Origin: Malacoraja senta
Lineage: Eukaryota
Direction of reading: 5' to 3'
Assembly: GCA_038087875.1 (NCBI GenBank)
Contig: CM075991.1
Span: forward strand, 7,628,001-7,692,000
DNA length: 64,000 nucleotides
Below, piece by piece: positions 3,968 through 40,700 of this stretch (the stretch's first letter is position 1; every line of letters begins with the position of its first letter). The position numbers were made by a program, and so were the translations under genes. Under the pieces are notes generated by a model. The model was given only the letters and a program-made list of their open reading frames with translations, ran no database searches and was not told the origin of the DNA.

Positions 3968-4271
3968 TGTGGGAAGGAACTGCCCGATGTTGGTTTAAAC
4001 CAAAGATGTTGGTTTAAAAGCTGGAGTAACTCAGCGGGACAGGCAGCATCTCTGGAGGGAAGGAATGGGTGACGTTTCAGGCCGAGACCCTTCTTCGGAA
4101 CTGCAGATGCTGGTTTAAACTGATGAAAGACACAAAAAGCTGGAGTAACTCCGTGGGACAGGCAGCATCTCTGGAGATGGAAGAAGGGTCTCGACCCGAA
4201 ACGTCACCCATTCCTTCTCTCCAGAGATGCTGCCTGTCCCACTGAGTTACTTCAGCTTTTTGTGTCTATCT
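3968..4271. repeat. Tandem plus inverted Penelope pLTR-derived repeat cluster
   Basis: Two units of gaactgcagatgctggtttaaa...ctggagtaactcagcgggacaggcagcatctctggag, then an inverted arm with aagaagggtctcgacccgaaacgtc. Confidence 0.75.
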
Positions 4272-4973
4272 TTAATTTTATTTATTGTCACATGTACCGA
4301 GACACAGTGAAAAGCTTTTGTTGCGTACTAACCAGTCAGTGGAAGGGCTATGCATGATTACATTTGAGCCACGCACAGTGCACAGATACATGATAAGGGA
4401 ATAATGCTCAGTGCAAGTTAAAGCCAGGAAAGTCCAATCAAAGATAGTGCGAAGATCTCTAATGAGGTAGATAGTATTTCAGGACTGCTCTCTAGTTGTG
4501 GTAAGGTAGTTCAGTTGCCTGATAACGGCAGGGAAGAAACTGTCCCTGAATCAGGAGGTGGATTTTCACACTTCTACACCTTTTGCCTGGTGGGAGAAGG
4601 GGGAGTGGCAAGTGTGCAATTCATCCTTGATTATGTTGCTGGCCTTGCCGAGGCAGCGTGAGGTATAAATGGAGTCAAGGTTTGTGTCATATTCTGGGCT
4701 GTGTCCATAATTCGCTGTCGCACTGCTCTTCGATGACCTGTTCGAACTAGTTCTATGTTATCCCACTTTCTCATCCACTCCCGACACAATAAGGCATTTT
4801 TTATACAGAGGTAAATTAATATGCAAACCCGTGGATCTTTGGGATGCACGAGGAAACCAAAGCACCACTGTAAATAATCCTTAGTGTGTGGGCAAGTGGT
4901 AGAGTCTGGGGCAGTCGATGGGAATGCATGGAAAATTAAATGGGATGAGTGTGGGATTAATTGAAATGGATGC

Positions 4974-5720
4974 TTAGACTTAGACTTGGACTTAGACTTA
5001 GATTCCTTTATTGTCATTCAGACCTTTCGGTCTGAACGAAATTTCGTTGCCTGCAGTCATACATATAATAAATAACAAAACACACAATAAACACAAATTA
5101 ACATCCACCACAGTGAGATCACCAGGCTTACCTCCTCACTGTGATGGAGGTAAAAGTCTTAAAGTCTCTGTCTCTTCCCTCTTTGTTCTCCCTCTGCGCT
5201 GAGGCGATCCAGGCTTCTGACGTTGTGACCCCGCCGGGTGATGGTAAGTCAGTCCCGCGGCTGAATCCGTGCTCCGTCCGCGACGGGCCGGTTCAAACTC
5301 CGCGGCCCGGGGTGGCCGAAGCTGCCGCCCTCCAGTCCAGCTGCCGCCCTCCAGAAAAACAGGTCACCCACCTGTGACCTGCGAGCTCCCGACGATGTCG
5401 TCCACTGGGCCCGCGGCCGAGCCTCCGGACTCAGGTCGCCACCAGCATCCTCGGTCACCACCGCCGGAACGCCACCGCAGCCCCGAAGCCGGCCAGCCCC
5501 GCGCTGGTAAGTCCTGGCTCTGCCTCCGGAGCCTTGATGTCGGTTGGTCGCAGTTGGTGTTGGAGGCCGGCAGCTCCGCCATTAGGCCTCGGCGCAGACG
5601 GAGGCAGAGAAGGGGGGCACGACAAGAAAAAGTCGCATTCCCCCGAAGGAAGAGACAAAAATCATGTTTCACCCCCCCACCCCACACGTACACAACCCAA
5701 TAACTAAAATTTAACTAAAA
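4974..5720 (-). mobile_element. Unclassified CpG-rich non-autonomous retroposon-like element
   Basis: (TAAGTC)n tail and AATAAA on the minus strand at the left end, GC/CpG-rich core; same layout as 9187-9880. Confidence 0.55.
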
Positions 5721-6132: not shown

Positions 6133-8145
6133 TTATTCGAATTAAAATAATGGTTGGGCTTACATCTACAGTCCCGTGAAAATAGATCAAATTTTACCAT
6201 GGCAGCATGGGGAATTAAATTCAATTAGTTAAAGATATCTATAATAAAAAGCTAGTGAACTACTTGATTTTATAAAAGCCCAGCTATTTCACTAATATCC
6301 TTCAGAGGAGGTGATCTATCATCCATACACTGAAACATTTCCAGCAACATATAGAGAAGATTTAGTTTTACGCTACAATTCGTAAAGTGGTACGAGCAAT
6401 ATTATATATTACCCCTCCTCTAATAATATAAAACCAAAAAATAAAAATAAATCACATTGAAAGTAGCTATTGTGACTGAGTGTTACTTCAGTATCCTCTG
6501 TATACATGGATGGATGGCTGTCCTTTAAGATGTGGCCTTAACTCTGGGAGTCTGTATGCCACATAATGCTAAATAAATCATTCTTAATTCATGAGCATTA
6601 ATAAATTGCACAGCGCTGTGTAAGATACACAAAAATGCTGGAGAAACTCCTAAGATACACTGGACTAACAAAATGGGCGTGTTAAAGATATGATCATGAT
6701 GTGGTGTGACTTGGGTGCTAATACTGAGTCACTTGTGCCTTTCATCACGCCTGAGGTGGGCTTCCTTCTCTTGGTGCCATCAGCTCTTTGTAATTGTCCT
6801 TGGTACTCTGCTTGCTCCTCTCTTCTCTTGTTTGCTTCTTGAAGGTTTTTGCATCTCTGGCCTCTTGTTCCAAAAACACTGCCTACTATATCTTCGTGTA
6901 GAGGGGAACTGCAGATGCTGATTTACACCGAAGATGGACACAAAATGTGGAGTAACTCAACGGGACAGGCAGCATCTCTGAAGAGAAGGAATGGGTGACG
7001 TTTCTGGTCAAGACCCTTCTTTAGACTGAAGAAGGCAACATCTCTAGAGCGAAGGAATGGGTCCTGCTTAGTTACTCCAGCATTTTGTGTCTATCCCACA
7101 ATTTATTTGACTGGATAACTCGCGAACAAAAGCCTTTCACTGTACCTCAGTTCACGTGCCAATAATGCACTAAACCTAACCTAAGCAAAACAAAATGATT
7201 TTAACATCTTGTCTATTGACCCCATGTTTGTGGCCTTGACTTCCACCATGGTCATTTCTCCGAGTCTAGCCATTGATTTGATCACAGCATTACTCCGAAG
7301 TAATACCCTCAACGCCATATCATTCCCAGTGAGGTGAGAAATTTCTTGCATTGAGACCATGCTCTAGGTCTCATTTATACATTTATCAATCTCATCTTCT
7401 GTGCTGTAATCCTCCTGGTTTCAGTGTGACTTCCTTCTGGTCTTCTGCAATAGATTCTTTGGGTTCACTGTCAGAGAACATCTCCCATCAGTCTTGCTGC
7501 ATAGCCTTGAGATCACGATGGAAGAACCATACACGTTAGTCCAAGGTCAACTTGAAATGTTGTCTCCTGTTTACTCTTGTAAAAACGTCTTGGCAAAAGT
7601 ACCTCAATCACTGTTCCTTCCAAAAAAGCTATCTTCTTTGACACCATGTGCGTTGTTGAGAACAAAACTGTAAATGTTGGAATTATGAAAGAAAAAGAGA
7701 AAATGCATAATTACCAGTAGTTTGACTAGCATCTGTGGTGAGGGAAACAGAGTTAACCTTTCAGGTTGTTGACCTTTCATGAGAACTGATTAGTTCCGAT
7801 GAAAGTTCCTCAACTCAAAACATTAATACTACTTCCTGACCTATGGATACTTTTCTGTTTTTGTATCAGGTAGGTTTTGTTCAACTGGTGCTCTGCATTG
7901 GTCATTGTCTATAAGCCTTCTTCATCAGCATACCTACCTGTGCCACCACCTTCAGGGATTGTTAGACTTGTACATAAAGGTCCCTTTGTCCCTGTTAGCC
8001 TTAACATTCATGGTTATATAACCAACTCGAACCCCCCAAATGCAACACCTCACACATCAGTATAAAATACCATCTGTTGTTGCTCTGCCCAATTTACCAA
8101 CTGATCACTTTCATTCTCATTGTCATATAGTCATACAGCATGGAA

Positions 8146-8490
8146 ACATAGAAACATAGAAACATAAAAAATAGGTGCAGGAGTAGGCCATTCGGCCCTT
8201 CGAGCCTGCACCGCCATTCAATATGATCATGGCTGATCATCCAACTCAGTATCCTGTACCTGCCTTCTCTCCATACCCCCTGATCCCTTTAGCCACAAGG
8301 GCCACATCTAACTCCCTCTTAAATATAGCCAATGAACTGGCCTCAACTACCTTCTGTGGCAGAGAATTCCACAGATTCACCACTCTCTGTGTGAAAAATG
8401 TTTTTCTCATCTCGGTCCTAAAAGACTTCCCCATTATCCTTAAACTGTGACCCCTTGTTCTGGACTTCCCCAACATCGGGAACAATCTTC
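8146..8490 (-). mobile_element. CR1 LINE 3' fragment
   Basis: ORF 8246..8557(-) FPMLGKSRTRGHSLRI...TQRVVNLWNSLPQ...GYGEKAGTGY; (TTTCTATG)n tail. Confidence 0.9.
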
Positions 8491-9186
8491 GGCCCAACTT
8501 GTTCATGCCGAACAAGATGCCCCATCTGCACTGGTCCCACCTGTCCACAATTGGCACATATCCTTCTCAACCTTTCTTATCCATGTACTTGTCCAGATGT
8601 CTTCTAAAAGTTGTAATATTCTGTGTCCTTAGACTACCCTCTTCACTATCAACAACTCCAACAATGTTTGTGCCATCTGCAAACTTACTGATCATATCAA
8701 GTACATTGATTATGATTTGATATCAATGTATGTAACAAAAAGCACGAGTTTCAGCATCAATCTCCATGAAACATTATTGGTCATGGGCTTCCAATTACAA
8801 TTTGGTCTGGCATTCACCACTATGTGATTCCGTCAACTGGTGGCCGAATATTTCAATTCAGCCTTGGATAGTTCCACAGCTTTGTGTATGTGTATGCATT
8901 TCTAGAGCTAACACTGTCTCAGTTTTGGTTAACATTACCTTGGGCATAACTCTTGAATTGCACAAATGATCCAATTTCTGACGAGTGATTCCTTCCAATC
9001 TGCAGAACTGCAATTATTTGCTGACATTCCTCAGTCAGTTGAGTTTATTGTCACGTGTACCGAGGCACGGTGAAAAGCTTTTATTGCACGCTATCCAGTC
9101 AGCAGAAAGATAATACATGATTACAATTGACCTAGCTATGTTAGTACATTGTCAAAGGATTCTTCTGCTTATGACCACAAGATCTA

Positions 9187-9880: not shown

Positions 9881-10115
9881 GTTGTAATATTCTGTGTCCT
9901 TAGACTACCCTCTTCACTATCAACTATTTCAACTGCATTTTCCAGGGTCTCATTTGAAGGATTTATTGTAAGTACAGTGTTTGTGCCCTATACCCTATAT
10001 TAGATACAACAATATCTATACTCATCTTATCTGGTTCTTTGCCATTGCCAATTCAGTACAAACATATCTCCTCCAGGTATGTCTACTTTGAAGAAGTTCT
10101 CCTCCTCTCTAACAG

Positions 10116-11157
10116 TAGCAATGTTACAAAACTTTGATATTTTAAAAATCAAGTCTGTAATTTATCCCATCAGATAAAGCATAAAAAGAAGTTTAATTTG
10201 ACACCTAATTCACTTTCATATCTTCAGTATTAAAAAAGTTATGGCCATTTTCATACTCGGAAATTAGCATCTTGTTCCCTATTGCTTTTCCATTGACTTA
10301 ACACAAAAGCTGTGATCGAGGACAGTTAAAAGCCCTTAACTTTCTTAAAAATTAAGAGAACTGAAAGAAATTTTCAGTTATTATAGATTGAAGCATTCTG
10401 AAACAAATATGAAACAATCTTACTTAGATGACATGAAATTAAAGCATATAATTAGTTAGTTACCTAATTGTAGCTAATTACAAAATTCAAGTACTAGATC
10501 TAAACATCTATCAATTTCTTAAGAATAGATTAACATTTTTAAATAGCCTAAGTGTCCAAATAACATTCACACAATAATTCACAATATAACATATTTTTTT
10601 TATCTCCTTGTCATGGATTTACAGGCCAAATGGAAGAAATTGAATGTTTAATACCTGTAAATTAATGGGAATTTATATCATCTTGCGAATGGGGATTTCT
10701 GGAACGCGATCATTTGGAACGTTCATTTGCGGTGAATTTAACCCTGTATTGGCATGAAAATTATTGCCGTTAGTTCGGGGGGAAAAATCACCGTGTCGCA
10801 TGTAAAAATGTGAATTAAAGGCCTCTTAAGGAGAACGTTTATACATAAAAATAAACCACTTTCGTTTACCTTTCACGTGTGAAATCCGTCCCTGTTGTTG
10901 GAGTTGACGGGTTCAGAAGATGATTTTAAAATGATTCCAACGCTGAACTTGTCGGGAGATTTTTAAAACAAAATACTCAAAACGCCCCTCGGAACGATTC
11001 TTCCGCAAAAGCTTGTACTCCAACAAAATATAATTCAGGACAAGGTAGGAGAAACCCGCGTTTTAACCCCGCCCCCCCCCTTAAAGGCGGCAAAATCGCG
11101 CACACGGCCAGTGACAGAATTACAGCGCCGCTGAAGGCAAGTATTGTAACATACCTA
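10116..11157. mobile_element. Non-autonomous DNA transposon (TAG...CTA ends, 7-bp TSD; hAT-like), copy 1
   Basis: TIR tagcaatgttacaa / ttgtaacataccta; TSD ctaacag at 10109-10115 and 11158-11164; collinear with 17155-18189. Confidence 0.85.
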
Positions 11158-11159
11158 CT

Positions 11160-11460
11160 AACAGCACCTCATATTTCACTTGGGTAGTTTACACCCCAGC
11201 AGTATGAACATTGACTTCTCTAATTTCAGGTAGTCCTTGCTTTCTCCCTCCTTCGCCTCCCCCTTCCCAGCTCTTCCACAAGCCTACTGTCTCCGCCTCT
11301 TCCTTTCTTTTTCTCCACACCCCACCCCCCTCCCCGCTATCAGTCTCGACCCGAAACGTCGCCTATTTCTTCTCTCCATAGAAGCTGCCTCACCCCCTGA
11401 GTTCCTTCAGCATTTTTGTCTACCTTTGAATTTTCCAGCATCTGCATTTCTTTCTTAAAC
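11160..11460 (+). mobile_element. Penelope-like element 3' end (GIY-YIG C-terminus plus pLTR)
   Basis: Translates QHLIFHLGSLHPSSMNIDFSNFR*, the usual end of vertebrate Penelope ORFs; followed by a pyrimidine tract and tctcgacccgaaacgtc (hammerhead 3' half). Confidence 0.8.
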
Positions 11461-11879
11461 AAATCTTTCATTGTCTCCTTTCTTTAGACAGTTTACCTAT
11501 CTGGAAATGCAATGGCTTGGGTCTCTTTATTTGTTCCATCGTGTCCGACTACAACTGAATTGCACGATCCGCTGACTCTGGCAACAACTTCATGTGCTAT
11601 CTTAACTGAGGAGGTTTATGCTGGCATTCCGTGTCGCCATTCAGGGAAGCAATTAAAATTGCGTAACATCTTCAGGCACCACCTCTGATAAGATGTCCCA
11701 GTTTCTTTCTCTCATTTCCTGACGAAAGTATCGGAGGATCGTCCATAATTTATGCCAACAAAATACTTTATTTAATCAAAGAAACTTATAGAGAGACAAG
11801 TTTTGCCATGTTTTTCAATGTTCTTCACTGAAACATCTGCAGCAATGTACAGAGATTAGTTGAACAAGTTTATGGGGGG

Positions 11880-12315
11880 ATGGCGGGACTGACATGATGA
11901 AAGAATGGATCGTCTGGGCTTATATTCACTGGAATTTAGAAGGATGAGGGGGATCTTATAGAAACATATAAAATTCTTACAGAATTGAACACGCTAGATG
12001 GAGGAAAAATACCCCCGATGTTGAGGGAGTCCAGAACCAGGGGTCACACTTTAAAAATAAGGGGTAGGTTATTTAGGATTGAGATGAGCAAAAACGTTTT
12101 CACCCAGAGAGTTGTGAATCCGTGGAATTCTCTGCCACAGAAGGCAGTGGAGGCCAACTCACTGGATGTTTGCAAGAGAGACTTAGATATAGCTCTTAGG
12201 GCTAACAGAATAAAGGGATATGGGGAGAAGGCAGGAACGGGGTACTGATTTTGGATGATCAGCCATGATCAAATTGAATGGCTCGAAGGGCCGAAGGGTT
12301 TACTCCTGCACATCC
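11880..12315 (+). mobile_element. CR1 LINE 3' fragment
   Basis: ORF 11985..12248 ESRTRGHTLKIRGRLFRIEMSKNVFTQRVVNPWNSLP. Confidence 0.9.
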
Positions 12316-13829: not shown

Positions 13830-14073
13830 ATTCCACTGAGTCTACACCGATCACCCGTCCACACCAGTCCCATGTTATCCCATTTTCACATCCACGCCCA
13901 ACACACTCTGACCAATTTATAGAGGCCAATTAACCTTTCAACCCATGTGAGAGGAAACCGGAGCACCCGGAGGAAGCCCAGTCGGTCACAGAGAGGATGT
14001 GCAAACTCCACACAGACAGCACCCGAGGTCAGGATCAACCCCGGGTCTCTGGAGCTGTGAGGCAACAGCACCA
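13830..14073 (-). mobile_element. V-domain tRNA SINE
   Basis: Reverse complement of gtgtggagtttgcacatcctct V core and tRNA head. Confidence 0.8.
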
Positions 14074-14076
14074 GCA

Positions 14077-14442
14077 GGGGATCTCATTGAAACATATAAG
14101 ATTGTTAAGGGTTTGGACACGCTAGAGGCAGCAAACATGTTCCCGATGTTAGGGGAGTCCAGAACCAGGGGCCACAGTTTAAGAATAAGGGGTAAGCCAT
14201 TTAGAACGGAGACGAGGAAACACTTTTTCTCACAGAGAGTGGTGAGTCTGTGGAATTCTCTGCCTCAGAGGGCGGTGGAGGCAGGTTCTCTGGATGCTTT
14301 CAAGAGAGAGCTAGATAGGGCTCCTAATAATAGCGGAGTCAGGGGATATGGGAAGAAGGCAGGAACGGGGTACTGATTGGGGATGATCAGCCATGATCAC
14401 ATTGAATGGCGGTGCTGGCACCTATTGTCTATTGTCTATTGT
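14077..14442 (+). mobile_element. CR1 LINE 3' fragment
   Basis: GDLIETYKIVKGLD...GYGKKAGTGY; (CTATTGT)n tail. Confidence 0.9.
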
Positions 14443-17154: not shown

Positions 17155-18189
17155 TAGCAATGTTACAACATTTTGAGATTAAAAAAATAAAGTCTGTAAT
17201 TTATCCCATCAGATAAAGCACAAAAAGAAGTTTAATTTGACACCTAATTCACGTTCATATCTTCAGTATTAAAGGAGTTATGGCCATTTTCATACTCGTA
17301 AATTAGCATCTTGTTCCCTATTGCTTTTCCATTGACTTAACACAAAAGCTGTGATCGAGGACAGTCAAAAGCCCATAACTTTCTTAAAAATTAAGAGAAC
17401 TGAAAGAATTTTTCAGTTATTATAGATTGAAGCATTCTGAAACAAATATGAAACAATCTTACTTAGATGACATGAAATTAAAGCATATAATTAGTTAGTT
17501 ACCTAATTGTAGCTAATTACAAAATTCAATTACTAGATCTAAACATCTATCAATTTCTTAAGAATTGATTAACATTTTTAAATAGCCTAAGTGTCCAAAT
17601 AACATTCACACAAGAATTCACAATATAACATAATTTTTAAATCTCATTGTCATGGATTTACAGGCCAAATGGAAGAAATTTAATGTTTAATACCTGTAAA
17701 TTAATGGCCATTTAAATCATCTTGCGAGTGGGTTTTTCTGGAACGCGATCATTTGGAACGTTGATTTGCGGCGTATTGGCATGAAAAATTCTGCCGTTAG
17801 TTCGGGGAAAAGAATCACCGTTTCGAATTAAAAAATGTGAATTAAAGGCCTCTTAAGAAGCACTTTTATACATTAAAATAAACTACTTTCGTTTACCTGT
17901 CCCGTGCATGAAACCCGTCCCCGTTGTCGGCGTTGACGGCTTTAGGAGCTGCTTTTAAAATAACTCCAGCGCTGAAATTGTTGATCGAATAAAAATAAAA
18001 AATACACAAAACGCCCGTCGGAACGATTTTTCAGCAAACGCTTGCACTCCAACGAAATATAATTCAGGACAAGGTAGGAGAAACCCGCATTTTAACCCTG
18101 CCCCCCCCCCCCTCAAAGGCGCCCAAATCGCGCACACGGCCAGTGGCAGAATTGCAGCGCCACTGAAGGTAAGTATTGTAACATACCTA
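17155..18189. mobile_element. Non-autonomous DNA transposon (TAG...CTA ends, 7-bp TSD; hAT-like), copy 2
   Basis: Same TIRs as copy 1; TSD cactatg at 17148-17154 and 18190-18196. Confidence 0.85.
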
Positions 18190-18669
18190 CACTATGATGC
18201 AGGAAGTGAAGCAGGGCAGATGATCAAACTTTTGGTTAAAAGGGTCGGGTTGAAAACCATGTTGAAAGAGGACGGAGAAGCAAATAAGTTTAAGGGGTAA
18301 TTTTAAGCAGTGGTCCTGCATTTAAAATGGATTTTGCCTTATCAACTATACACAAATAAAATAGTGGGAAAACATTTCTTTTGAAGTGTGTGAATTTTAA
18401 GAATAAAATTTGGTGTGGAAGAAATTAATTATCATCAGTCGTTTGCATAATGAGACGGTGATTTGAGTACTGCTAGCTATAAGATCATCTACAAATCATT
18501 TGACTAAGTGTCACAGACAAGTGAGGCCTCAAAACCGATGGGAAGATAGAAAGCCTTGGAACTCCGCCCAAGGTACCAATCGAAAGAGTGTCAAATACCA
18601 AGATACATCTTTGTAGCCCACTGCTATTTCATGCACTCATCACTGGGTCGGCAAAGGTTTCTTGACAGT

Positions 18670-18975: not shown

Positions 18976-19271
18976 TATCAGCCTGACTTTGATCTAAATC
19001 TAAGTTTCCAAACATTTGAGAGTTCAACTTCTATTTTTCATAACATAAGTATTAGTCCTTCAGAATGTCTTTATTTAACATAGAACAAAGAACAGTTTAG
19101 CACAAGAATGCTGAATTTTCGATATGCCTCTCTTCCATGTCACTATCATATTTGCAAATCCATGTGACTATCATAGTTTGTGTCAACAGCATCCTGGGAG
19201 CACATTACTTGTGTAGGAAGGAACTACAGATGCTGGTTTACACCGAAGATAGTCACAAAATACTGAAGTAA

Positions 19272-19633
19272 AGGGCCTATCCCACTTGCGCGACTTTTAC
19301 AGGCGATTGCCGGCACACGTCATAGGTCGCCGAAATTTTCAACATGTTGAAAATTCAGCAGCGACCAGAAAGACGCTACGGCTCTTTGGAGACCTCTCAC
19401 GACCATAGGCTGTATGGTCGTGAGAGGTCTCCTTTAGTCGTGAGAGGACACCCGCAACATGTCGCCAGGGGTCTCCATTGGTCGTGAGAGGTCTCCAATG
19501 GTCGTGAGAGGTCTCCAAAGAGTCGTAGCGTTTTTTGAGGTCGCCGCTGAATTTTCAACATGTTGAACATTTTTACGACCTATGACGGGTGCCGGCAGTC
19601 ACCTGTAAAGGTCGCGTGAGTGGAACAGGCCCT
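19272..19633. mobile_element. PIF/Harbinger-type MITE inserted in a Penelope-derived repeat
   Basis: TIR agggcctatcccact / agtggaacaggccct, TAA TSD; removing it restores ctgaagtaactcag; two internal palindromes (19336, 19552). Confidence 0.9.
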
Positions 19634-20198
19634 TAACTCAGTGGGACAGACTCTGGAGGGAAGGAATGGGTGATGTTTCGGGTCATTGTTTGATGTTATA
19701 GCTACATTACAGATACATTTACCCAATGTTCAATTAAGAGCACTGAATATTCAGCGGGGATGTGCGGGGATCCCTAATGTGTGGGGATCGTTGGGTGGCG
19801 TGGACTCGCTGGGCCGAAGGGCATGTTTCCGTGCTGTATCTCTAAACTAAACTAAACTGCTGATGCTGCAAACTTGGAATAAAAACAGAAGATACTGGAA
19901 ACAATCAGGTCAGGCAACTGGAATATTATCGTTGTATCTTTTTCCATCGATGCTGCCTGACCTGCTCATTATTTCAAAATCTAATCCCTTGTCTTATTAG
20001 ACAGGTCTCTGAATCATTGGTCCAATATCTTTAGCAGTGCTGGCTCGAAGGGCCAAATGGCCTCCTCCTGCACCTATTTTCTATGTTTCTATTTCCACTG
20101 TGCTATTGATTGGACATAGAACAGTACAACACAGTCCCCTGTCAATGCTGAACATGATGCTAAACTAAACTAATCTTTTCTACCTGCATATCATCCTT

Positions 20199-20226
20199 CT
20201 GAGGAAGGGTCTCGACCCGAAACGTC
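20199..20226 (+). ncRNA. Minimal type I hammerhead ribozyme core in a Penelope-derived repeat
   Basis: CTGAGGA-A-GGGT(CTCG)ACCC-GAAAC-GTC: CUGANGA box, stem II, GAAA box, palindromic ACGT stem III, GUC triplet. Confidence 0.6.
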
Positions 20227-21240
20227 ACCTATTCCTTTTCTCCAGAGATGCTGTCTGACCTGCTGAGTTACTCCGGGTTTTTGTGTCTCTCTTCTGTTTC
20301 TGCAGTTCCTTCCCACACACTCCCTCCATTGCCTGCTAATTTTTATAATTTAAGCAGTCTTAGTCCTTAAGAATGTCTTTGTTTAACATAGAACAAAGAA
20401 CAGTACAGCTCGTACATTTGAAAACCTCTTAAACGCGGCTACCTTATCTGCCTTTACCACCACGCCAAGCAGTGTGTTCCAGGCACCCACCATTCTCTGT
20501 GTAAACAAAAATGATTTGCATGTCTCCTTTAAACCTTGCCCCTCTTACCTTAAAGCTATGCCCGCTAGTCCTTGACATTTCCATCCTAGGAAAAACATTC
20601 TGGCAGACGATCCTATCTATGCCAGAAATCTATGGTTAAAATAAACTGTAACAATGCAGAGATATCAGAGTACACATGCCTCAGTTAAAGAAATGACACA
20701 TTGATTTCTGATGATGTTTCCTCTCCTTGGAAATGCGTTGTGCTCATTAAAAAGCATTCAAGTTTGGAACAATGGTTTGAGTTATAGCTACATTACAGAT
20801 ACATTTACCCACTGTTCAATTTAGCTCACAGTGTATTCAGCACTTTGCAGTGTTATTGAGCAGTGACATAAAAACACTAAACTCAATCCCCCTTTCCCTT
20901 ACATATACACATTTGCATGCAACAGCTACTTTAAATTGAGAAGCTGTGAGGTACCTTATGGGTTGTTAGTCAAATAGCTCATGGTTTATTATGACTCAAA
21001 AACACTAGATGCTGGAATCTTAATTGAAACACAATGTGCTGGAGGAACTCAACAGGTCAGGCAGCATCTATGGGGGAAATGGACAGACGGCATTTTGGGT
21101 CAGAACCCATCTTCTGATTGGAGAAGGAGGGAGGAAGTCTAGGAAGGAACTGCAGACGCTGGTTTAAACCAAATAGAGACACAAAAAGCCGGAGTAACTC
21201 GGCGGGTCAGGCACCATCTCTGGAGAAAAGGAATAGGTGA

Positions 21241-21690
21241 TAGAAACATAGAAAATAGGTGCAGGAGTAGGCCATTCAGTCCTTTGAACCAGCATCACAA
21301 TTCAATATGATCATGGCTGATCATCCAAAATCAGTACCCCGTTCCTGCTTTCTCCCCATATCCCTTGATTCCGTTAGCCCGAAGAGCTATATTTAACTCT
21401 CTCTTGAATATATCCAATGAATTGGCCTCCACTGCCGTCTGTGGCAGAGAATTCCACAGATTCACAACTCTCTGGGTGAAACAGTTTTTCCTCATCTCAG
21501 TCCTAAAAGGCCTACCCCTTATTCTTAAACTGTGACCCCTGGTTCTGGACTCCCCCAACACCAGGAAGATATTTCCTGCATCTAGCCTGTCCAATCCCTT
21601 AAGAATTTTATATGTTTTTATAAGATCCCCTCTGATCCTTCTAAATTCCAGTGAATATAAGCCCAGTCGATCCATTCTTTCATCATCTTT
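21241..21690 (-). mobile_element. CR1 LINE 3' fragment nested in a Penelope-derived palindrome
   Basis: ORF 21331..21738(-) ERMDRLGLYSLEFRRIRGDLIKTYK...GTGY; host repeat is split at aataggtgat / cttttgggtc. Confidence 0.9.
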
Positions 21691-23048
21691 TGGGTCAAAA
21701 CTCTTCTTCTGAAGAAGGGTCTTGACCCGAAACATCACATATTCCTTTTCTCCAGAGATGCTGCCAGACCGGCTAAGTTACTCAAGCTTTTTGTGTCCAT
21801 CAAGAGGGGAGAAAGCTGGAAAGGTAGGTCGAGGCAGGACAATGGGAATGGCAAGGATGGTGGGTGTAAGGAACAAGCTGCCAGAGGAGGTAGTTGAGGC
21901 AGGGACTACCCCAACATTTAAGAAGCAGTTAGATAGGCACATGGATAGGACAGGATTGGAGGAATAAGGACCAAATGCTGGCAGGTGGGAGTAGTGTAGC
22001 TGGCACATGTTGGCCAATGTGGGCAACTTGGGCTGAGGGGCCATCTTCCATGCTGTATCACTCTATGACTCTATAACTGATAAATTGCAGGTGGATACAT
22101 GTGGGAAGGAGTTTGACTGAACGATGGGTGGACTAAAGTGACAAAGGCTAGAGGTGAAATGGAGATAAAAGGGTTTTCCTTTCCCTTCCTTCATACACTC
22201 AACGTCCATTCCCAAGTCCCCCATTTCCCTTTTACCCCCCCTCATTCCCCTCCCTCTGTTCCCTTCCACCCATATCCTCCCCTCCTGCTTTACATCTCAC
22301 TCCTTCCCATCTCTTCTTCTCTGACACCCATTTGTCTCCTTTCACCTCCAGTCTTTGACAATCTGGTCAGTGGTGCACAAGACTTCAGTCCATAACCTCC
22401 CACTTCAGAGTCATCTACTGTCCGCAGAACCGCTGATAATGAATGAATAACAAAGTCAAAGAATCCAATGGCATCTTCTCTTTGATTTAACTATGACCTT
22501 TGATAATAAATAACATTTGTATGCTTAAAACAGGCAAACCAAGTGTCTTTTTGAAGTCAAGCATTGCATTTGCAAAACAAGCTGCTCCTGCTGGCTACAT
22601 CACGTACATCTTTCACTTACATTTCAATACATTGGGTTATATTTAACATGTGATTGTTTATAACAGCACGCCAGTTCTTCTCTAAAATCCTGAAACAATA
22701 CTCTGAAGCACACCTTTCCTGAGGGATTATGAAAGTATAAAGGGGCCAGGAGCGTTATTCCAAAAGACAAATGTTTTAACTCTTAAACTCTTTGGCATTT
22801 ATACTTAAGAAATGCATATTTTACAGATTTGCCATGCAGAGTTATATATAGAATATACTGGGCAAAGATACTGGCCCAGTCTACCCAGCAAGTTAATGAT
22901 ACGTAGCGAGTTTGAAATACTTTTAATGCAAGGCATCATCTGTCGTGAGAGGAACAACGTTTCAAGCTGATGATTTTCCCTCAAGAATTGAAATATTTTA
23001 GATGTAGCAGGTTCTATGCAAGTAGGGGAGAGGGTAAATGAGAGAAAT

Positions 23049-23333: not shown

Positions 23334-24109
23334 AGAATGCTGGGGTGAGAGGCAGGAGAGATCAAGCTGCAACAGGATCATTGCTGTTCGACAGTGAAAA
23401 GGTCTGGTTGTGTCCCTTAAGGGCCTGTCCCACTTTCACGACCTAATTCACGACCTCTGCCGAGTTTGCCCTTGACTCATACTCACAGCATGGTCGTCAC
23501 GAGGTCATAGGAGGTCGTAGGTAGTTTGTGACTCGGTGACTTACTGTATTTCAGGCCTGGGATGGAGATGGTGATTCTGACTTACATAAAATCTGACGTG
23601 TGTTGGTTCATGGAAAGTAGCTCTTATATAAGTTGGGGAGTGCCTGTATAGTGGTACAGGTGCAGAGAAAATGCTGATGTAACAAGTGCTGGTAGTTTGG
23701 GAGATTGGGAATATATCTTTAGTTCATATGAGGTCCATTGTTGAGTCTGATAACAGCAAGGACATTGTGGGCTCCACCTGTCCTTGGTCATCGGTGCCGG
23801 CTCTGATATGTTCTGAACCTTTTCATACCTCTAGTTTCCCTCTCCCCTGACTCTCAGTCTGAAGAAGGGTTTTGACCTGAAGTGCCACCTATTCCTTTTC
23901 GCCAGAGATGCTGCCTGACCCGCTGAGTTACTGCAGCATTTTATGTCCAATAAGAGCAAGAAAGAACCAGTTCTTGGATCTGGTGGTACATGCTTTTGTG
24001 TCTTGTGACTGATTGGAGAAGGGAGGAGTGGGAATGACGTGTATGTGTGTAGTGCTTGATTATATTTATTGCTCGGCAATATTTATTGCTTTCTCAAGGC
24101 AGCATGAAT

Positions 24110-28090: not shown

Positions 28091-28769
28091 ACTTATAACT
28101 TTCAAAATCTTGAACGAAATATTCCAGCACTGTGAATTCACGATCTAAAACGGATCAAATTCTCACCAAACTACTAACAAATACTGCAAAGAAAAACAAT
28201 AAAAAATTTGCAGGACTTCACTTTTTTCATGAACTAGCCATCAGGTTTTGACATATTATTCATTATAGTGGAATATTTTCATTACACAGGCGTCATTAGT
28301 TCAAAACAAAAGCACACCACTATCTTCACAAAAACAACCAGAAATGAACTATAAATTCTGGGCTTGCTAGCAACGCCCACCACTAATGCATGAATCCATT
28401 AAAGATTGTTGGCATATTGATGTTGTGTGGAGAATGCTGTATTGTAAACACAATTGATTTCTTCCCTGATTTTTTATGACTTTGTCATACGATGACTCCT
28501 TCTGGCCTGAGTCCCAAAACGCATCAGATTCCTATCACTGCTACTTTCATGCATGCCTTCCAAAAAAACAAACCCTGAAGTGTGAAATGTCAACGCCAGG
28601 TTCTCACTCCTTTTCAATGAAGATTTCCTCAGAGGCTCATTCAGGGTGAAATTATTCTAAAAGTCTGTTTGCTTGTGTGCTATTCCTGTAATTTCAAGTC
28701 AACGTGGTTTTCTTTTTGCCATCTCACTCATGCAGTTTCCTCTGACTGATGTGGAAAGATTTTGACAAT

Positions 28770-29232
28770 TGGGCCTGTCCCACTTAAGGGCCTGTCCCAC
28801 TTAAGGGCCTGTCCCACTTACGCAACTTTTTTGGCAACTGCCGGCACCCGTCGTATGTCATTAGAGGTTGCCGAAAATTTTCAATATGTTGAAAATCCGA
28901 ACAAGGTACGACTCTTTGGGCGACTACTCACGACCATACAGGCTTCACCCCGCCACATGTCGCCAGGGTGTCACCTGTATGGTCATGAGAGGTCTCCTAG
29001 GCACCCAAAGAGTCGTAGCGACTTTCTGGTCGCCACTGAATTTTCAACATGTTGAGAATTTTCGGCAACCTATGACAGGTGCCGGCAGTCACCGAAAAAG
29101 TCGCGTAAGTGGGACAGGCCCTTTAGGCGATTTTTGGGGCGACTACAGGCGAGTGCTGCAAAATTTTCAACGCGTTGAAAAAATTTCAGCGACAGTGGCA
29201 ACAATTTTTGCTGTCGTAGGTTGTCGTAGGTT
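28770..29232. mobile_element. Nested PIF/Harbinger-type MITEs
   Basis: Three tandem TIR starts (28770, 28787, 28804); inner element ends at 29122 with TTA; outer element resumes ggcgattttt as in the TIR of 56560-56888. Confidence 0.85.
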
Positions 29233-29636
29233 CTAATTTCCAGGGAATACAAGCCCAGTTGATCCATTCTTTCATCATATGTCTGTCTTGCCATCCCGGG
29301 AATTAACCTGGTGAATCTATGCTGCACTCCCTCAATTGCAAAAATGTCCTTCCTCAAATTAGGAGACCAAAATTGCACACAATACTCCAGGTGCGGTCTC
29401 ACCAGGGCCCTGTATAACTGCAGTAGGACCTCCTTGCTCCTAAACTCAAATCCTCTCACAATGAAGGCCAAAATGCCATTAGCTTTCATCACTGCCTGCT
29501 GTACCTGCCTGCTTACTTTCAGTGACTGATGAACATGGACACCCAGGTCTCCTTGCACCTCCACTTTTCCTAATCTGTTACCATTCAAATAATAACCTGT
29601 ATTCCTGTTCTTGCCACCAAAGTGGCTAACCTCACA
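29233..29636 (-). mobile_element. CR1 LINE ORF2 fragment, downstream part (host of the DIRS)
   Basis: YYLNGNRLGKVEVQGDLGVHVHQSLK...LYRALVRPHLEYCVQFWSP. Confidence 0.9.
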
Positions 29637-31099
29637 TTTTACTTCGGAGTCACGTGAGTGACTACGTGAAGAAGACCCGTCGGGGCGCCTGCGCGTCATT
29701 ACGTCAGACGCATTGGCGCGAACGGACGTGAGGAGCAGCGCTCCTCTAGTGGAAATGTAGTTTTGAACTACAAGGTAAGAACATTTTTTCAGAAGTTTCC
29801 GGGTCCGTTTGCTGTGGGTCTGTGGGGATTTTTTCCACAGGCACCATGGAAAAAACGGGCAAGGGGAAGAGGCGAGCGGCAAAGCCGGTGGAAAGTCGCA
29901 AGATTGCGGTCGGCGAACAGCTGCCTCAGACCCCTGTACAGTCGCCGGCTGGGAGCGTAGCGACTGTGGACTTGGGTCTTAAAAGAATACAGTCAGGGCC
30001 AGTGGGGCGCAAGGCTAAGTTCAAGTCCGTCAGGCCCACGGAGGAGGAGTTCGATCAGGAGGATTTGACTCCAGGCTGGATACCGCTGTTGAGCGGATTT
30101 CTCAGATGGAAAGCCTGTTACACAGGTTACTCAAGCAAAGCACACTCAGGGTAGAGTGTAGCTAAAGCCAGGCTCCAGAAGCCAGGTCAGCAGCACCTAG
30201 CAAAGGGCTGTTTGAGAGCACCCTCATTGATGAGGCGCGTGCACAGGGTCAGCAGAGTTTTCTGATACAAGGAAAGACGACAGCTGCCAGATGTTCTATT
30301 TCTGGCCGTACGATTCGCTGCTCTGTGAGAGTTCTGACCCTGAGTCTGACGGTGAGGCCGATACAAGCGAAGACGGCAGCTGCCAGATGTTCTACTCCTG
30401 GCAGTACGATTCGCTGCCCCGTCAGAGTCAGGAGAGCCACTGGGAGAGGAAGTGGCCTCTACGATCAACTATTGTGTCTTCCATCAGCTCCAGTAGCTTA
30501 CGATGGATGAAAATGCCAACAAAAGCACGAGACCCCAAGGAACTGCATATTGCTGAAAGTACTAGCAGTGAACCAAGATATAAGGGGTCAGATGGGCGAG
30601 GGCATGTGAGCCTAAGAAAAGTAAACTGCAGAGAATATTGAAGCTGCTGGGTTGAGGAACAACTGCATTCTTGCAAGAACAATGGATGGAGGCCAGGGAT
30701 GGAGATGCATCAAGTGGCACTAGGGTTGCTATGTAGCACCCACTTCGAGATGAATTGTTTCAGGAAGTATGCCATTCGGCCCACCATCAACCCCAAGTTG
30801 CAGCAACTCTGTAAAGCCCAGCAATGTGTAGTCATTCAACTTACTCTTCAGAGAAAAAACCTCACGAAATGTGGGAAAGAGTTGGATGATGAGGCAAAAA
30901 CAGCAAGGTTGATCAAAACATCAATGGTCGGCAAGTCTGTGAAGAGGAGGTATCCCTTCAGACATCATACAAAATCCTGGGCCTACACCAGGAACAAGTC
31001 GACCATTGAAGCAGGGGCGCAGTTGGTGTCCTACAGCGGGAACACAAAAAAGCGTGAGTTTTTCCTGCCTGGAGTCAGGGACCACAGGTCACTCAGGTG

Positions 31100-32920
31100 A
31101 CAAAGGAGGTAGGTGGACCTGGTTCTCATGGGAACAGATTAAGGCAAAAACAGCCAAATATTGGAAGCAAATTATTTCAGATTTATTATTCTGAGTATTA
31201 TTCAAAGATTTCAAATTGATTCGATCCAAATAGTGATTTGCCATCCAGCATGTTCCTAGCAGAACACTCCAATTTCACAAAAAGAAGTGATGGAGGTTCA
31301 AGCTGAATTTGAAAACTTGTCTAAAAACAAGTAATTGAAAGGTTGGTTTATCAAAACCACCAAATTGTGTTTAAATTTTCTCGACCTAAAAAGGTGAGGA
31401 GTATTTTAGATCTGACAGGTCTTTAAAATTTTGTGAAGTATAGACACTTAAAAATGGAGACTTTGAGACTGCCAAACAACTTATTTCAAAAGATGTTATA
31501 TGGCACCTATAGATCTGAAAGATGTATATTACTTAGTGTCTGTTCATTTGTAAGATACAAATATTTGAAATTTATCTGAATGAACAATTATGGCAATTCA
31601 AAGTTCTGTCTAATGGGTTAACTTTAGTTCCTAGAATTTCACTAAATTGGTAAAACCAATTTTTGGGGCTAATTAGAATCCAAGGACAGATGTTGATGGC
31701 TTAACTGGATGATGTCCTAATTAAGACGAACAAGAGAATTAGTGAGTTATCTCTCTCAATTGTTCAATCCATTTTTGAAAGTTTGGGGTTTAATTCATCC
31801 AGCGAGAAACCAAGGTTAACGCCACTTACAACAATTGATAATTTTAATTTCACACTTGATTCAATTGACATGGTAGTAATTTTACCCAGGGTAAAGGGTA
31901 GAGCTGATTGATGGTTGCATTAAGCTGTTGAAAAAGCAACAATCTTCAATTAAGACAGGTGGCCAGTTTGCTAGGAAAATTAGTGTTATTTCCAGCAAAA
32001 CAATATGGGCCATTGTACTACCAGCAGCTACAGACGGCAAAAAGAAAGGGCACTAAAATGCATGGCGGCCATTTTTGATAGGCCATGCAGTTAAACAACA
32101 AATGCTGCTTCTGATTTGCAGTGGTGGATTTAACATTCTCCAGTAGTTCAAGCAAGATACTGATTGAACAGCTTTCCATGGTCTTACAGACTGATGTCAG
32201 TGCACTGGGATTTGTGCCACTGAGATGGTATCCATCTGTGGACAGATGGAATATGGAAGAGGCATTATTTTTGCAGACATGGAGAATCAACGTTTTACAG
32301 CTATTGGAAGGTTTATGAGCTCCAAGCTTGTTGTTAATACAACTAATCTGCATGTTCAGCTTCAAATTAACAATACTACAGCAATGGCATGTATTAATTG
32401 TATGGGTGGAATTAAGTTGGTGTCATGTGACAAATTGGCTAATCAAATCTGGACTTGGTGTGTTGACAAATATTTGGTTTCAGCTATTTATCTACCAGGT
32501 AGATTCAAGATAGTAGCAGACAAAAGGTTATGGGAATTTCCATGATAAGAAAGAATGGATGTTGAATCTTAAAATTTTAATGATATATTAGTCAGATTTG
32601 GGAAGCCAGTTACGACTTGTTTCCATCCAGACTCAATCACCAGTTACAGAGATATGTGTTATGGGAACTACATCGGGAGACAGTAGCGATTGATGTTTTC
32701 TCGCTACATTAGGGTGGTATGTTTTTATATGCATTTTCCATCATTCTGTCTCATAAACCGGTGTCTGCTTAAAATGAAGCAGGATGCTGCCTCTGGGGTA
32801 CTGGTGGCACCGGACTGGTCTACGCAGCCATGGTTCCCTTTGATATTGGAATTAATGACACAGTTTCTGATAAAGGTTCCCAAAAGAAGGGATTTACTGG
32901 TGTATCTGATAATTGGAGAG
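31100..32920 (+). pseudogene. DIRS pol remnant (RT - RNase H - methyltransferase-like domain)
   Basis: YMAPIDLKDVYYL (~31497), MA*LDDV (31697-31717), LQTDVSALG (~32184), INNTTAMACINCMGG, YLPGRFKIVADK, LVAPDWSTQPWFPLILELM; many stops and frameshifts. Confidence 0.8.
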
Positions 32921-32929
32921 TAACATCCG

Positions 32930-33941
32930 TTATATGCCTGTATGGATCTGTTAATTTGCAGGTTTTAAAAAGAGGATTGTCTGGGCATACTGTGGACATG
33001 CTTACAGCAGTCTGGCGGAAGAGCACTCAAAAGCAGTACATTTGCGAATCTGAGGTTGTGACTCTGTAAATGCTGCTTTCCCATTATGTAAAGAATGGGG
33101 AAAAATTTCTGTGTACAAAAGAAAATGGAATGTTGTACGGCACATGTTTCAAATGTCTTAGGTTTTCTCAAACACTCTATTTGAGGGGTTGAGTTATAGT
33201 GCGATTTATTCAGCCAGAAGTACATTGTCCTCGTTTTTTAATTGATGAGGTCGGAAAGACATCCTGTTGAGTCTCGTTCTTTCATTTCCAGATTAATAAA
33301 AGGAATTTTAATTCCAGACTTTCTAAACCTAGGTATGGCAATCTGGAATATAGAGTGGTTTTAAGCTACTTCATCAATGGACTCTTGGTACGATTCTGAT
33401 CTGGCCAAGTTCAGCATGAAAGTAGTCATGCTTATGGCACTTGTAACAAGCACAGAGAGTGCAGACATTACAAAAGTTACAGATACACAGGATGGAAGTA
33501 CCTCAGGATTATGTTATGTTTTACATTTTATGACCTACTCAAATGAAGTAGGGTCAGGTGTGACAGGATTCAAGAGTGTTTTATTAGCATATTCCATGGA
33601 TCCATGTCTATGTGTTAAGACATATTTGTGGCAATACATTGAGGCTACAAAGGTCTTATGAAATATGAAAACAAGATTGTTTAACATTCACGAAAAAACA
33701 TACAAGATAGTGTCAGTTCAGACTATTTCAAGATGGTTAAAACAAGTCTTGGTTGCTGCAGGTGTGAACAGTGATGTTTTTACATCCCATTCAGTTTAGC
33801 AGCAACATTGACGACCAGGGCGAAGGATGTCCCGTCGACCATATTTTCGCAGCGATCTAATAAGTTGGTGTTTCAACACTTTTACCATCGGCCTATTGCC
33901 AATATGGGGCTGTTTGCAGATACTATATTAAGTTCTGCTTA
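32930..33941 (+). pseudogene. DIRS tyrosine recombinase remnant
   Basis: GLSGHTVDMLTAVWRKSTQKQY, KVVMLMALVTS, QTISRWLKQVLVAAGVNSDVFTSHSV (HSxR box), FQHFYHRPI (catalytic Tyr region). Confidence 0.8.
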
Positions 33942-34742: not shown

Positions 34743-35204
34743 AGGGTCAGAGAGAGTAACAGAAACACGAGCTTCATTCTTCCCCTTGGTCATGGCTGGC
34801 TGAGAGAGTCAAATGAATCAATACGCCTTCAATAAACCACTTTTGCCACTTCTCTTTTTGCTTTTCGACTATTGGATTCCAGTTGAATGGAATAAACCCA
34901 GGTTATTTGATTAACCGGCGCTCTGTTCTTCAATGAACAGATATCCTGTTACTGACTACCATACCCACCCTTTACAGTTGCTGCCCAAGCATAGCACACT
35001 CACCAGAGTCCACCGTTCCCATGACAACCATCCAGCAGCTCATTCTTTTTGCCAGAGAAGGGTTCATCTCCCTGACAGGACTCGCATTTGCCTTAAGGCA
35101 CCACATTTACACATATAATTTGATTTTGAATAATAAGCGCTAAACTCTTTGTCTGCACGTCTGCTTTCGTCACGCAACAAAGCTGCAACAAATAGTGAAT
35201 TGAC

Positions 35205-35838
35205 AACACTGATGCCATTATTAAGAAAGCACATCAGCGCCTCTACTTCCTGAGAAGATTACGGAGAGTCGGTTTGTCAAAGAGGACTCTCTCTAACTTC
35301 TACAGGGGCACAGTGGAGAGCATGCTGACCGGTTGCATCGTGGCTTGGTTCGGCAACTTGAGTGCCCTGGAGAGGAAAAGACTACAAAAAGTAGTAAACA
35401 CTGCCCAGTCCATCATCGGCTCTGACCTCCCTTCCATCGAGGGGATCTATCACAGTCACTGCCTCAAAAAGGCTGGCAGTATCATCAAAGACCCACACCA
35501 TCCTGGCCACACACTCATCTCCCTACTACCTTCAGGTAGAAGGTGCAGGAGCCTGAAGACTGCAACGACCAGGTTCAGGAATAGCTACTTCCCCACAGCC
35601 ATCAGGCTATTAAACCTGGCTTGGACAAAACACTGAACTTTATTAGCCAATTAACTGTTATTTGCACTTTATCAGTATATTGATTCATGTGTGTATATAT
35701 TTATAGAATGGTATATGGACACACTGATCTGTTTTGTAGTCAATGCCTACTATGTTCTGTTGTGCTGAAGCAAAGCAAGAATTTCATTGTCCTGTCAGGG
35801 ACACATGACAATAAACTGACTGACTGACTGACTGACTG
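35205..35838 (+). mobile_element. Rex1/Babar LINE 3' fragment
   Basis: KKAHQRLYFLRRL...LLPSGRRCRSLKTATTRFRNSYFPTAIRLLN; (TGAC)n tail. Confidence 0.85.
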
Positions 35839-36827
35839 AATCAAAAAAATACTCAAATGTGTGAACTCAATACAACAAGAGTCAGTGGCCAAGAACTGCA
35901 GGTGCCGGTTAGTGCCAAAGATAGACGCAAAGTGCTGGAGTACCTCAGCGCGTCAGGCAACATCTCTGGAAAAAAAGGGTGGGTAACATTTCGGGTCGGG
36001 ACCCTTCTTCAGACTGCAGTGTCTTCGAGATGTTTTCAAGAGAGAGTTAGACATAGCTCTTAGGGCTAACGGAATCAGGGATATGGGGAGAAAACAGGAA
36101 CGGTGTACTGATTTAGGATGATCAGCCGAAGGGCCGAATGGCCTACTCCTGCACCTATTTTCTATGTTTGTACGTCTTCAGCCTGCTTCAAATGCCGTCT
36201 GAAGTAGGGTCCTGACCCGAAACGTCACCCATCCTTTTTCTCCAGAGATGTTGCCTGACCCGCTGAGTTACTCCAGCATTTTGTGTCTGACAAAATGCAG
36301 ATCCACTTCCATCTACATTGAAACTATTTTCTGTCTTCATGGTTGGTTGACTGACGTCTACCTCTTAGTTGTAAAGTGGGTGAAGAAAACGGTGGTGTAT
36401 GGAGATACTATTTCTGTTTGGAAGTTGCACTTTGCGGTTATTCTTCAGTAAAAATATAAAGTTTAAAACACAAGCTTCCTTTTGAGATTCTACAATTCAA
36501 CGTTTATTTGGAGTCCAAATCTATGATTAAAATAAAACAGATTTCCCATTTTGATGACAAAAATCTCCCTCCATTTTCAAAGGAGATTTCGTCCGTATGC
36601 CACGGAATTTCTGTTTCGAAACTATGAGACGTATTTATTTAACACCTTTGTGTGCCACGGAAATGCAAAGTGTTTCACAAAAGCAAAACCTGACTTCAGG
36701 CAATGATGGAAGCTGTGTTCAGAAGCAAACACGACTCCTTTGATAGCACTGTTGCCTTTGAATATCAGATGCACTCACACTCCCATGATTTGTAGGACAA
36801 ACCATTGGTGAATCTTGCAATAATAGA

Positions 36828-39590: not shown

Positions 39591-40700
39591 ATTCTCTGTG
39601 ACCTTGCCTGTGGCTAGAGAAGAAACAAAGATCCTGATGAGGATCTGGACAAAGATCCTTCATCTTGACACGGCAACAGGGTAATGGGGTTGATAGATTG
39701 TTCTGAGAGCAGGATAGATTTGATGGGCCGAATGGTCCCCTAGTCTCTTGTTGAAAAAAGAATAATTGTGTCATAGGTTTCCTTGATTTGGATTTGTTAC
39801 TTTTTTTGAACTGTGATCTATTAAATACATAGAAACTATTGAGAACACTTTGCATGATGTGGCATGACGTATGATACATCTCTCTGCATCTGCGACTGCT
39901 GTAGATGTGTGTTACTTGCCATCAATAAGGGATGTTTGATTTGAAGCTCTATCCTTGTTACTTGCCTTTATCAAACAGCAATACAGTGAAGAACATTGTA
40001 GTCTCCATCCTCAATCCTGACCTTTCCTCCCTTTCCTGCTTGCAAAGTCTTCTCATGCCTTGGTTTCTGTTTGTAATGAAATGATTTCTCTCCTGCTCTG
40101 ACAACAATGACACTGTCTAAAACCTTTGGCCTTGCTCCCTCCCTCTCTCCCTGTTTTCAAAATTGTTTGTGGAACCAACCATGTTGGCAGAGCCTGTCGG
40201 CTATCTTCACTCTTTTCTTCCAACTCTAGCTTGGCCCTGACACCGGGTTCTGAATTATCGTTGGATGCTGTGCTATGTTGAAGCTACGATAGAAACAGAA
40301 GGAGGGATGAACAGTTCCATGGGGGTGATGGTGAACCGTCTCCTTATCCTTATCCAGTCTGAAGAACTGTCCCGACTTGAAATGGCACCTATTCATCTTC
40401 TCCAATGATGCTCCCTGACCTGCTAAGTTACTCCAGCATTTTGTGCCTTTTTTTGTAAACCAGCCTCTGCAGTTTCTTGTATCCATAGTCTCCTTATCTA
40501 TCCCTTACTTTTGCCAGAACCAAAGATCTGCAAATGGTGGTTTATATTCCCAAGACAGACCCAAAGTGCTGGAGTAACTCAGCGGGTCAGGTAGCATCTC
40601 CAGAGAGAAAGGATCCTTTGTGATAGTACCTGCCTCAACTACTTCCTCTGGTAGCTTGTTCTATAAATCTGCCACACTTTGTGTAAAAAAAGTTACCTAA

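Follow-up and report, generated by a model that had tools for sequence, protein, structure and literature searches.

Minimal type I hammerhead ribozymes, the class found in Penelope elements, are known to cleave as dimers. Such hammerheads were described in the pseudo-LTRs of metazoan Penelope elements by Cervera and de la Pena (2014; PMC4209133), and thousands of single or opposite-strand copies per genome have been reported (PMC4209133, PMC6765202, PMC7229834). According to the first of these papers, stem I usually has three to five pairs, with two-pair stems in three Drosophila species, Culex and Oikopleura; the five two-pair stems I of its Fig. S3 consist of C-G and G-C pairs only, and cartilaginous fish are absent from that figure and from its Table S1. 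In the D. virilis Penelope an intron runs up to 491, and C3 follows five bases later, at 496 (PMC2377424; PMC4209133, Table S1). Insertions of the Neptune clade are described as having an adjacent inverted, truncated copy and a tail of 30 to 40 bases, often at one end only (PMC8557442). The Anolis Poseidon element PAc cuts and extends both target strands, and its tail is defined by two internal positions from which reverse transcription begins (Frangieh et al. 2024; PMC11167929); the same report gives its hammerhead as dispensable for insertion, with RNA cleavage only in the presence of protein and no RNA-seq ends at the cut site. For the related retrozymes, a preprint (10.64898/2026.07.22.740005) describes them together with Penelope elements across vertebrates, one chondrichthyan included, and reports cleavage by one of nine Xenopus dimers tested.

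The repeat family described here resembles the published minimal hammerheads (PMC4209133) in its position after a GIY-YIG frame, its mostly single or opposite-strand copies and its truncated elements, and differs from them in a stem I of two pairs, the first being U-A or U-G, and in a short stem II of four pairs. With Neptune elements (PMC8557442) it shares a C-terminal GIY-YIG end, 5' truncation, an inverted partner arm and a one-end tail, whereas its stubs are unusually short and unusually often start at the hammerhead edge. As in PAc (PMC11167929), there are two 3' end classes about 35 bases apart, and two-strand cutting would give head-to-head pairs; unlike PAc, which belongs to another clade and host, the present family is known from sequence alone. 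Like non-LTR retrozymes (PMC7229834; 10.64898/2026.07.22.740005), it is hammerhead-bearing, non-coding and related to Penelope pseudo-LTRs, but the retrozymes so described are arranged in tandem, head to tail, every unit having a complete hammerhead, whereas the copies seen here are dispersed, head-to-head and mostly broken. The kind of element is already published, and as a ribozyme discovery the family is ordinary; literature searches gave no description of this stub family, and the alignments of Lunse et al. may include it.

The hammerhead core and its repeat family

The core at 20199-20226 (+) of the 64-kb window (the whole stretch of DNA analysed) belongs to subfamily A of the repeat and shows C3 to A9 with a bulged A, a four-pair stem II, the GAAA word, a loopless ACGT stem III and a GUC site; it is intact, with only one stem I pair. 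A short fold-back remnant lies at its 5' edge, and the whole repeat copy (20193-20318, +), delimited by profile search, reads as a pseudo-LTR stub with an internally deleted tail. The exact core pattern (CTGANGA, 10 to 30 bases, GAAAC) occurs five times in the window, at 1854-1878 (−), 20199 (+), 21709 (+), 40912 (+) and 51931-51955 (−); the mean in 100 shuffles was 1.07, and five were reached in one of them. All 12 places at which the sequence-only reading had put a hammerhead core are copies of one repeat, and the positions it named hold real motif copies, three of them after small shifts (51286 to 51287, ~4181 to 4178 and ~35986 to 35985); absent from its list were copies at 40910 (−), 40359 (+), 21116 (−) and 51279 (−) and about 15 partial arms.

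The core begins a repeat of 100 to 135 bases, which amounts to about 3.7 kb, or about 5.7% of the window. Positions are counted from C3 as +1, the predicted cut falling after +28. Profiles made from the window copies give 42 (A) and 38 (B) matches at E ≤ 0.5, some of which are weak or belong to the same arm, and the same profiles give no matches on the reversed window. From these matches 34 arms were resolved by eye, and 20 loci were tested for flanking duplications. Subfamily A has GUC with A after the cut and subfamily B has GUU with G after the cut, and a third, older variant is present at 21116 (−). Pairing survives the differences between subfamilies (stems I and II change from U-A to U-G, and C17 changes to U17).

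The family is plainly abundant and common to several species: one B copy matches, at 85% likeness, 40,765 contigs of run X19 and, under three other organism codes, 18,860 in X21, 5,319 in X1 and 5,111 in X2, contig counts being distinct from copy numbers. X1 and X2 are possibly RNA runs. Judging by its repeat content, the host of the window would be a cartilaginous fish, probably a skate. B-family depth extends about 35 bases upstream of the core in X19 and drops upstream of the core in the other three runs, a drop that may reflect sequence divergence.

With respect to the fold, the features of minimal hammerheads are present, namely CUGANGA, the extra base after A9, G10.1-C11.1, GAAA, U16.1, H17 and the palindromic loopless stem III, the last of which, as the sequence-only reading held, is true of undecayed copies. 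The only core positions varying at 8% or more in the aligned runs are the CpG G12 (7.5-12%) and the C/U at 17. At the fourth position of stem II, U-A or U-G accounts for about 99% of aligned depth in all four runs, so that the U-U of two window B copies is a rare variant, and 83% of stem II cells are paired across 18 window copies. Stem I had been called weak, and it indeed has at most two pairs in 15 of 15 copies, with no variant at 8% or more in the aligned contigs that lengthens them; among the listed comparison motifs 66 of 88 have a stem I of three to seven pairs (under 5% when shuffled). The predicted probability of stem II is close to zero with flanks of 20 to 25 bases, since the core pairs with the pyrimidine tract that follows the cut site, compared with a median of 0.96 in the listed comparison motifs (11 of 88 below 0.05), and the minimum-energy folds of the copies are not hammerheads.

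An evolved "anti-ribozyme" pairing between core and 3' tract was rejected as a specific design, this pairing being no stronger in any of eight copies than when the same pyrimidine-rich bases are shuffled (p 0.05-0.53), although stem II still loses out to it. The predicted folds show no bulged stem I of greater length, and lengthening by splicing brings no gain, the candidate donor at 11230 leaving the same last bases. Rfam covariance models gave no hammerhead among 16 matches at E ≤ 10, the core pattern was found in no viral contig, and a family-specific 34-base pattern had no match in metagenomes. Self-cutting by the hammerhead of these stubs is doubtful.

The link to a Penelope-like element

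The longest copy (11159-11463, +), which is B-like, contains in order an ORF end, a pyrimidine-rich 3' UTR, the hammerhead, the 3' part and the tail. Its first part is the end of a Penelope-like GIY-YIG endonuclease frame, 23 codons and the stop (11162-11233, +), and the earlier statement that the 3' half of the motif at 11344 follows a Penelope GIY-YIG C-terminus was borne out, a GIY-YIG-like stop lying 111 bases before it. The hammerhead of this copy carries a deletion of 12 bases of the core 5' half, between two GTCT repeats (11345-11352, +). At least 121 metagenome loci, fetched by the RNA core alone, served for comparison, and among those listed the DNA flanks are unrelated to the window repeat, with only the core in common. 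The window peptide of 23 codons matches 39 places in the 121 listed loci, and 36 of the 39 matches listed lie on the same strand, 83 to 176 bases upstream of the core. As these loci were selected on the core, its conservation there is circular, whereas the position of the peptide is not.

The 23-residue window peptide alone matched no Pfam family. Among five longer frames from the listed loci, four match Pfam GIY-YIG (E 6e-5 to 5e-3; three at E ≤ 0.002 and the fourth at 0.005, one being above the curated cut-off), and the fifth, 330 residues of locus L012, finds 67 longer proteins, most with RVT_1. A CX2-5CxxC motif, given as a linker for Neptune and Nematis (PMC8557442), is present within the last 220 residues of 61 of the 68 proteins reached through L012. 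In a search with a profile of 40 of these 68 proteins, the window peptide comes out on top of 2795 six-frame segments, its alignment covering positions 790-809 of 811, with an E value of 0.089 that is weak alone (next best, 5.4). These similarities indicate that the repeat is the pseudo-LTR, at the 3' end, of a Penelope-like element, probably one of the Neptune clade; a protein-profile search found no Penelope reverse transcriptase or full ORF in the window, and, with no linker or full element there either, we infer the clade from the 23 residues.

Three of the comparison loci, L012:54-1043 (+), L075:646-993 (+) and L040:1-306 (+), have Neptune-like endonuclease ends followed by well-formed minimal hammerheads with a stem I of three to seven pairs; they are probably animal host DNA, the nearest named protein being from Acropora cervicornis. 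Another comparison family (L024:1-60 and L042) has a two-pair stem I and a head-to-head junction at the core 5' edge. In the window itself, the GIY-YIG frame ends in a weak splice-donor-like word, which is followed by a pyrimidine tract ending in CAG directly ahead of the hammerhead (11225-11345), where, by analogy with Drosophila Penelope, a 5' UTR intron is possible. Within the repeat, a second pyrimidine tract with YAG comes before an ATG at +50. The idea that an ORF begins inside the repeat was considered and rejected, as the ATG frame of several copies is broken in most and, by eye, unlike nine relative N-termini.

Other elements are interspersed with the family. A LINE reverse-transcriptase C-terminal frame lies at 42083-42982 (−), with Pfam RVT_1 and ALKBH8_N matches, and a close relative of it by eye at 35199-35636 (+). 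CR1/L2-like LINE 3' pieces are many (53117-54404, 29070-29978, 8158-8566, 11894-12311, 13951-14419 and others), with further ones at 21242-21687, 38370-38814 and 50840-51226. A repeated AT-rich non-coding element with similar ends (~10110-11160, ~5650-5710 and ~17990-18250), one copy of which abuts the GIY-YIG fragment, is possibly a non-autonomous DNA transposon, and another repeat with inverted-looking ends occurs at 19272-19633, 28750-29236, 54427-54785 and 56693-56998, one copy splitting a hammerhead-repeat copy. Several broken frames at 30166-33661 (e.g., 32195-32545 and 33365-33661) have a reverse-transcriptase/RNase H or recombinase-like look, and we take them to be possibly a decayed DIRS-type retroelement.

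Insertion anatomy and copy ends

Eleven loci are head-to-head pairs, three of them split or spaced by LINE 3' pieces, which, lying inside or between hammerhead-repeat arms, are younger than those insertions. The arms 40910 (−) and 40912 (+) are joined at the core 5' edge and have no tail (40813-41008). At 21135-21802 the right arm (21709, +) is paired with a left arm made of 21723-21688 and, with the tail, 21241-21135, split by the LINE 3' piece at 21242-21687. At 50625-51383, within a 10-base target-site duplication, the right arm (51287, +) is paired with a left arm made of 51279-51227 and, with the tail, 50702-50625, and here the split is due to a LINE piece plus a nested B pair (50709-50839) with a 15-base duplication. 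A probable pair at 35887-36292, 36012 (−, with tail) and 36199 (+), has a LINE piece as spacer and no duplication that we could find. Further pairs are formed by 7024 (−, with tail) and 7061 (+) at 6891-7095, with a complex junction, and by 1427 (−, with tail) and 1426 (+) at 1326-1496; one at 47923-48090 has a 15-base target-site duplication, a B pair without core at 61317-61460 has a 14-base duplication inside a short microsatellite, and one at 51598-51714 lacks both core and tail. Three arms are found at 3968-4279, namely 4178 (+), the inverted 4177 (−) with tail, and 4099 (−), which stands head-to-tail to 4177 at the sole tandem junction seen; neither unit of this junction has an intact core, and the profile matches in the window include no tandem arrays. 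Three of the pairs (61324-61413, 4147-4248 and 51623-51687) match microRNA precursors and a plastid hairpin in Rfam below threshold; head-to-head pairs are a likely source of false hairpin-RNA annotations and, if transcribed, of double-stranded RNA.

The remaining copies are mostly single. The subfamily B copy at 51860-52063 (−) has about 100 bases of native upstream sequence, an intact core with C3 at 51955, a two-pair stem I, a 9-base target-site duplication and no tail, and contigs skipping 51861-52060 confirm its empty site. A second B copy starts from the core (1782-1880, −) and has a 17-base duplication. The two lie 50 kb apart and are identical over 93 bases (1786-1878 and 51863-51955, both −), and have in common a stem II variant seen in about 1% of aligned depth; they differ in their flanks and are bounded by separate duplications, which suggests a recent sub-lineage. 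A subfamily A copy with a decayed core (23780-23950, +) has about 80 upstream bases that are probably native, a single decayed copy with tail (40352-40482, +) begins four bases before the core and has an 11-base target-site duplication, and the older third variant (21001-21123, −), also decayed, hosts the inserted 21135-21802 pair in its upstream part. We also observe a decayed, tailed copy accompanied by a short inverted arm (2670-2813, +), a partial copy with tail (19209-19685, −) split by an unrelated insertion (19272-19633), and a partial copy with tail and without core (40519-40614, −).

Shared flanking words of 9 to 17 bases are found at 7 of 20 loci, compared with 12 of 1990 random flank pairs, while 13 of the 20 show no clear target-site duplication. 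Four of the duplications enclose whole pairs (one lies in a microsatellite), indicating that each pair is one insertion. The 3' ends of arms fall into two classes, at about +86 to +102 or about +121 to +135, and the resulting tail of about 35 bases is present on exactly one arm in nine of 11 pairs, on neither in two and on both in none (P = 0.025).

As for the 5' ends, arm starts read by eye fall at −6 to +5 in 14 of 34 cases (P = 4e-5 against a uniform distribution over −10 to +70), a cluster that could be inflated because native upstream sequence of subfamily A comes from one copy only. Only three of 34 start near the cut site, at +25 to +32 (P = 0.59), which argues that cut RNA is not the main template. 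Another 16 begin inside the repeat (+8 to +66), and four copies extend 70 to 186 bases further upstream, one of them into the ORF. Among arms that contain C3, 14 of 18 start at the core edge, compared with 7 of 82 comparison motifs starting within 10 bases (family size was three or more for 82 of the 105 listed motifs); 13 of the 105 have an inverted arm no more than 100 bases upstream. This clustering at the hammerhead edge is the family's one unusual trait. The palindrome TCAG-T-CTGA spans −4 to +4 in both subfamilies and overlaps the core 5' edge, other head-to-head junctions lie at or near palindromes at +41 and +46, and palindrome annealing plausibly explains the clustering.

Decay of the copies and a proposed route of insertion

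The window copies read as mostly neutral fossils whose core decays like the rest of the repeat, with no sign of selection. Four of 15 copies have an intact core, and one of 15 has an intact core together with a two-pair stem I. Non-CpG divergence in 13 A-type copies is 12/143 in the core and 67/624 downstream (Fisher, P = 0.45), while changes in the loop and stem III are mainly CpG transitions, stem III CpG decay affecting 7 of 26 cells. The sequence-only reading had described GGG/CCC pairing in stem II as mostly kept while the loop varies; the pairing is retained no more than under neutral change, and CpG decay accounts for most loop variants (CTCG to CTTG, CCCG to CCTG). Covariation in the stems of 18 decayed window copies, a set of little power, was 0.132 compared with 0.140 when shuffled, and 309 of 500 shuffles reached as high. 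The very high-copy ribozyme-bearing family of that reading stands insofar as the family is high-copy, Penelope-derived and equipped with a minimal type I motif whose stem I is weak. That loop variation around a kept stem marks a maintained ribozyme in these copies is not supported, given neutral core decay, no covariation above shuffles, 11 of 15 cores broken and the single stem I pair of the copy at 20199. The subfamily differences preserve pairing but are one-sided and few, and only hint at selection in the master elements.

We consider it by a good margin the most probable reading that the repeats are 5'-truncated pseudo-LTR stubs of a Penelope-like family, that the pairs were made by insertion and that the copies are neutral fossils. 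The GIY-YIG nuclease would cut both target strands, and the reverse transcriptase would prime one short cDNA on each cut strand, with uncut RNA as the presumed template and a start at one of two internal sites about 35 bases apart, which would account for the one-sided tail. The two short cDNAs would then join head-to-head, often by annealing at short palindromes such as TCAG-T-CTGA. In the master element the hammerhead might be functional only in dimers formed through the ACGU palindrome and with protein help, because stem I has two pairs and the core is contested by the 3' pyrimidine tract.

The edge clustering could also arise if the family were a non-autonomous mini-element, whose RNA begins at the hammerhead 5' edge and serves the Penelope enzyme as template over its full length, the edge being a fixed end (a transcription start or a splice acceptor CAG/T) and not a truncation hot spot. 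The 14 of 34 arms (14 of 18 with C3) that start at −6 to +5 fit this, as do two copies that begin at the core edge with the target-site duplication as boundary, the pyrimidine tract and CAG before the core, and the D. virilis intron, which reaches as far as the start of helix I (PMC4209133, PMC2377424). We nevertheless judge it unlikely, as four copies reach 70 to 186 bases further upstream, one into the ORF, 16 arms begin inside the repeat at +8 to +66, B-family depth in X19 goes about 35 bases upstream of the core, and the starts themselves were read by eye, with subfamily A upstream sequence from one copy only.

A working retrozyme-like unit, in which dimers self-cleave at GUC/GUU and cut or circular RNA is reinserted, would fit the presence of the core, bulged A9, G10.1-C11.1 and palindromic stem III, and could draw on the pair-preserving subfamily differences, the head-to-tail junction at 4177 (−)/4099 (−) and the two B copies identical over 93 bases. 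It is very improbable given that only 3 of 34 arms start near the cut site, that the profile matches show no tandem arrays, that most partners lie on opposite strands and so form no cis dimer, and that the core decays neutrally, leaving 1 of 15 copies with an intact core and a two-pair stem I. That the hammerhead look is an accident, a purine-rich word and a short hairpin in an unrelated repeat, we find scarcely credible: the lack of an Rfam match, of covariation and of hammerhead-like minimum-energy folds would agree with it, yet it is largely refuted by the position of the peptide, the Pfam matches of the longer frames and the protein-profile search. Loci with otherwise unrelated flanks have this core at a like distance from a common endonuclease end, and every core feature fits the consensus published in the text and Fig. 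S3 of PMC4209133.

The family bears on the role of the Penelope hammerhead, which cleaves poorly, is dispensable for insertion in vitro and is absent from some successful clades. To the known cases it adds one from a vertebrate, in which stem I is about as weak as any described and short insertions flanked by duplications are numerous. Whether 5' ends follow the cut site, which here they do not, or a palindrome could be tested cheaply on it, as could the fit of its tails and inverted arms to the two-start model. A more speculative view, to which we give a low but not negligible probability, is that the hammerhead of this lineage is vestigial or switch-locked, with two pairs in stem I and a core sequestered by the pyrimidine tract downstream, and that its letters are kept since the palindrome at the 5' edge, together with an RNA end at that point, defines a palindromic, pseudo-LTR-only mini-element that has out-multiplied its parent. 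If that were true, the family would be a very high-copy natural record of two-primer Penelope integration and a test of a non-catalytic job for the hammerhead core in transposition.
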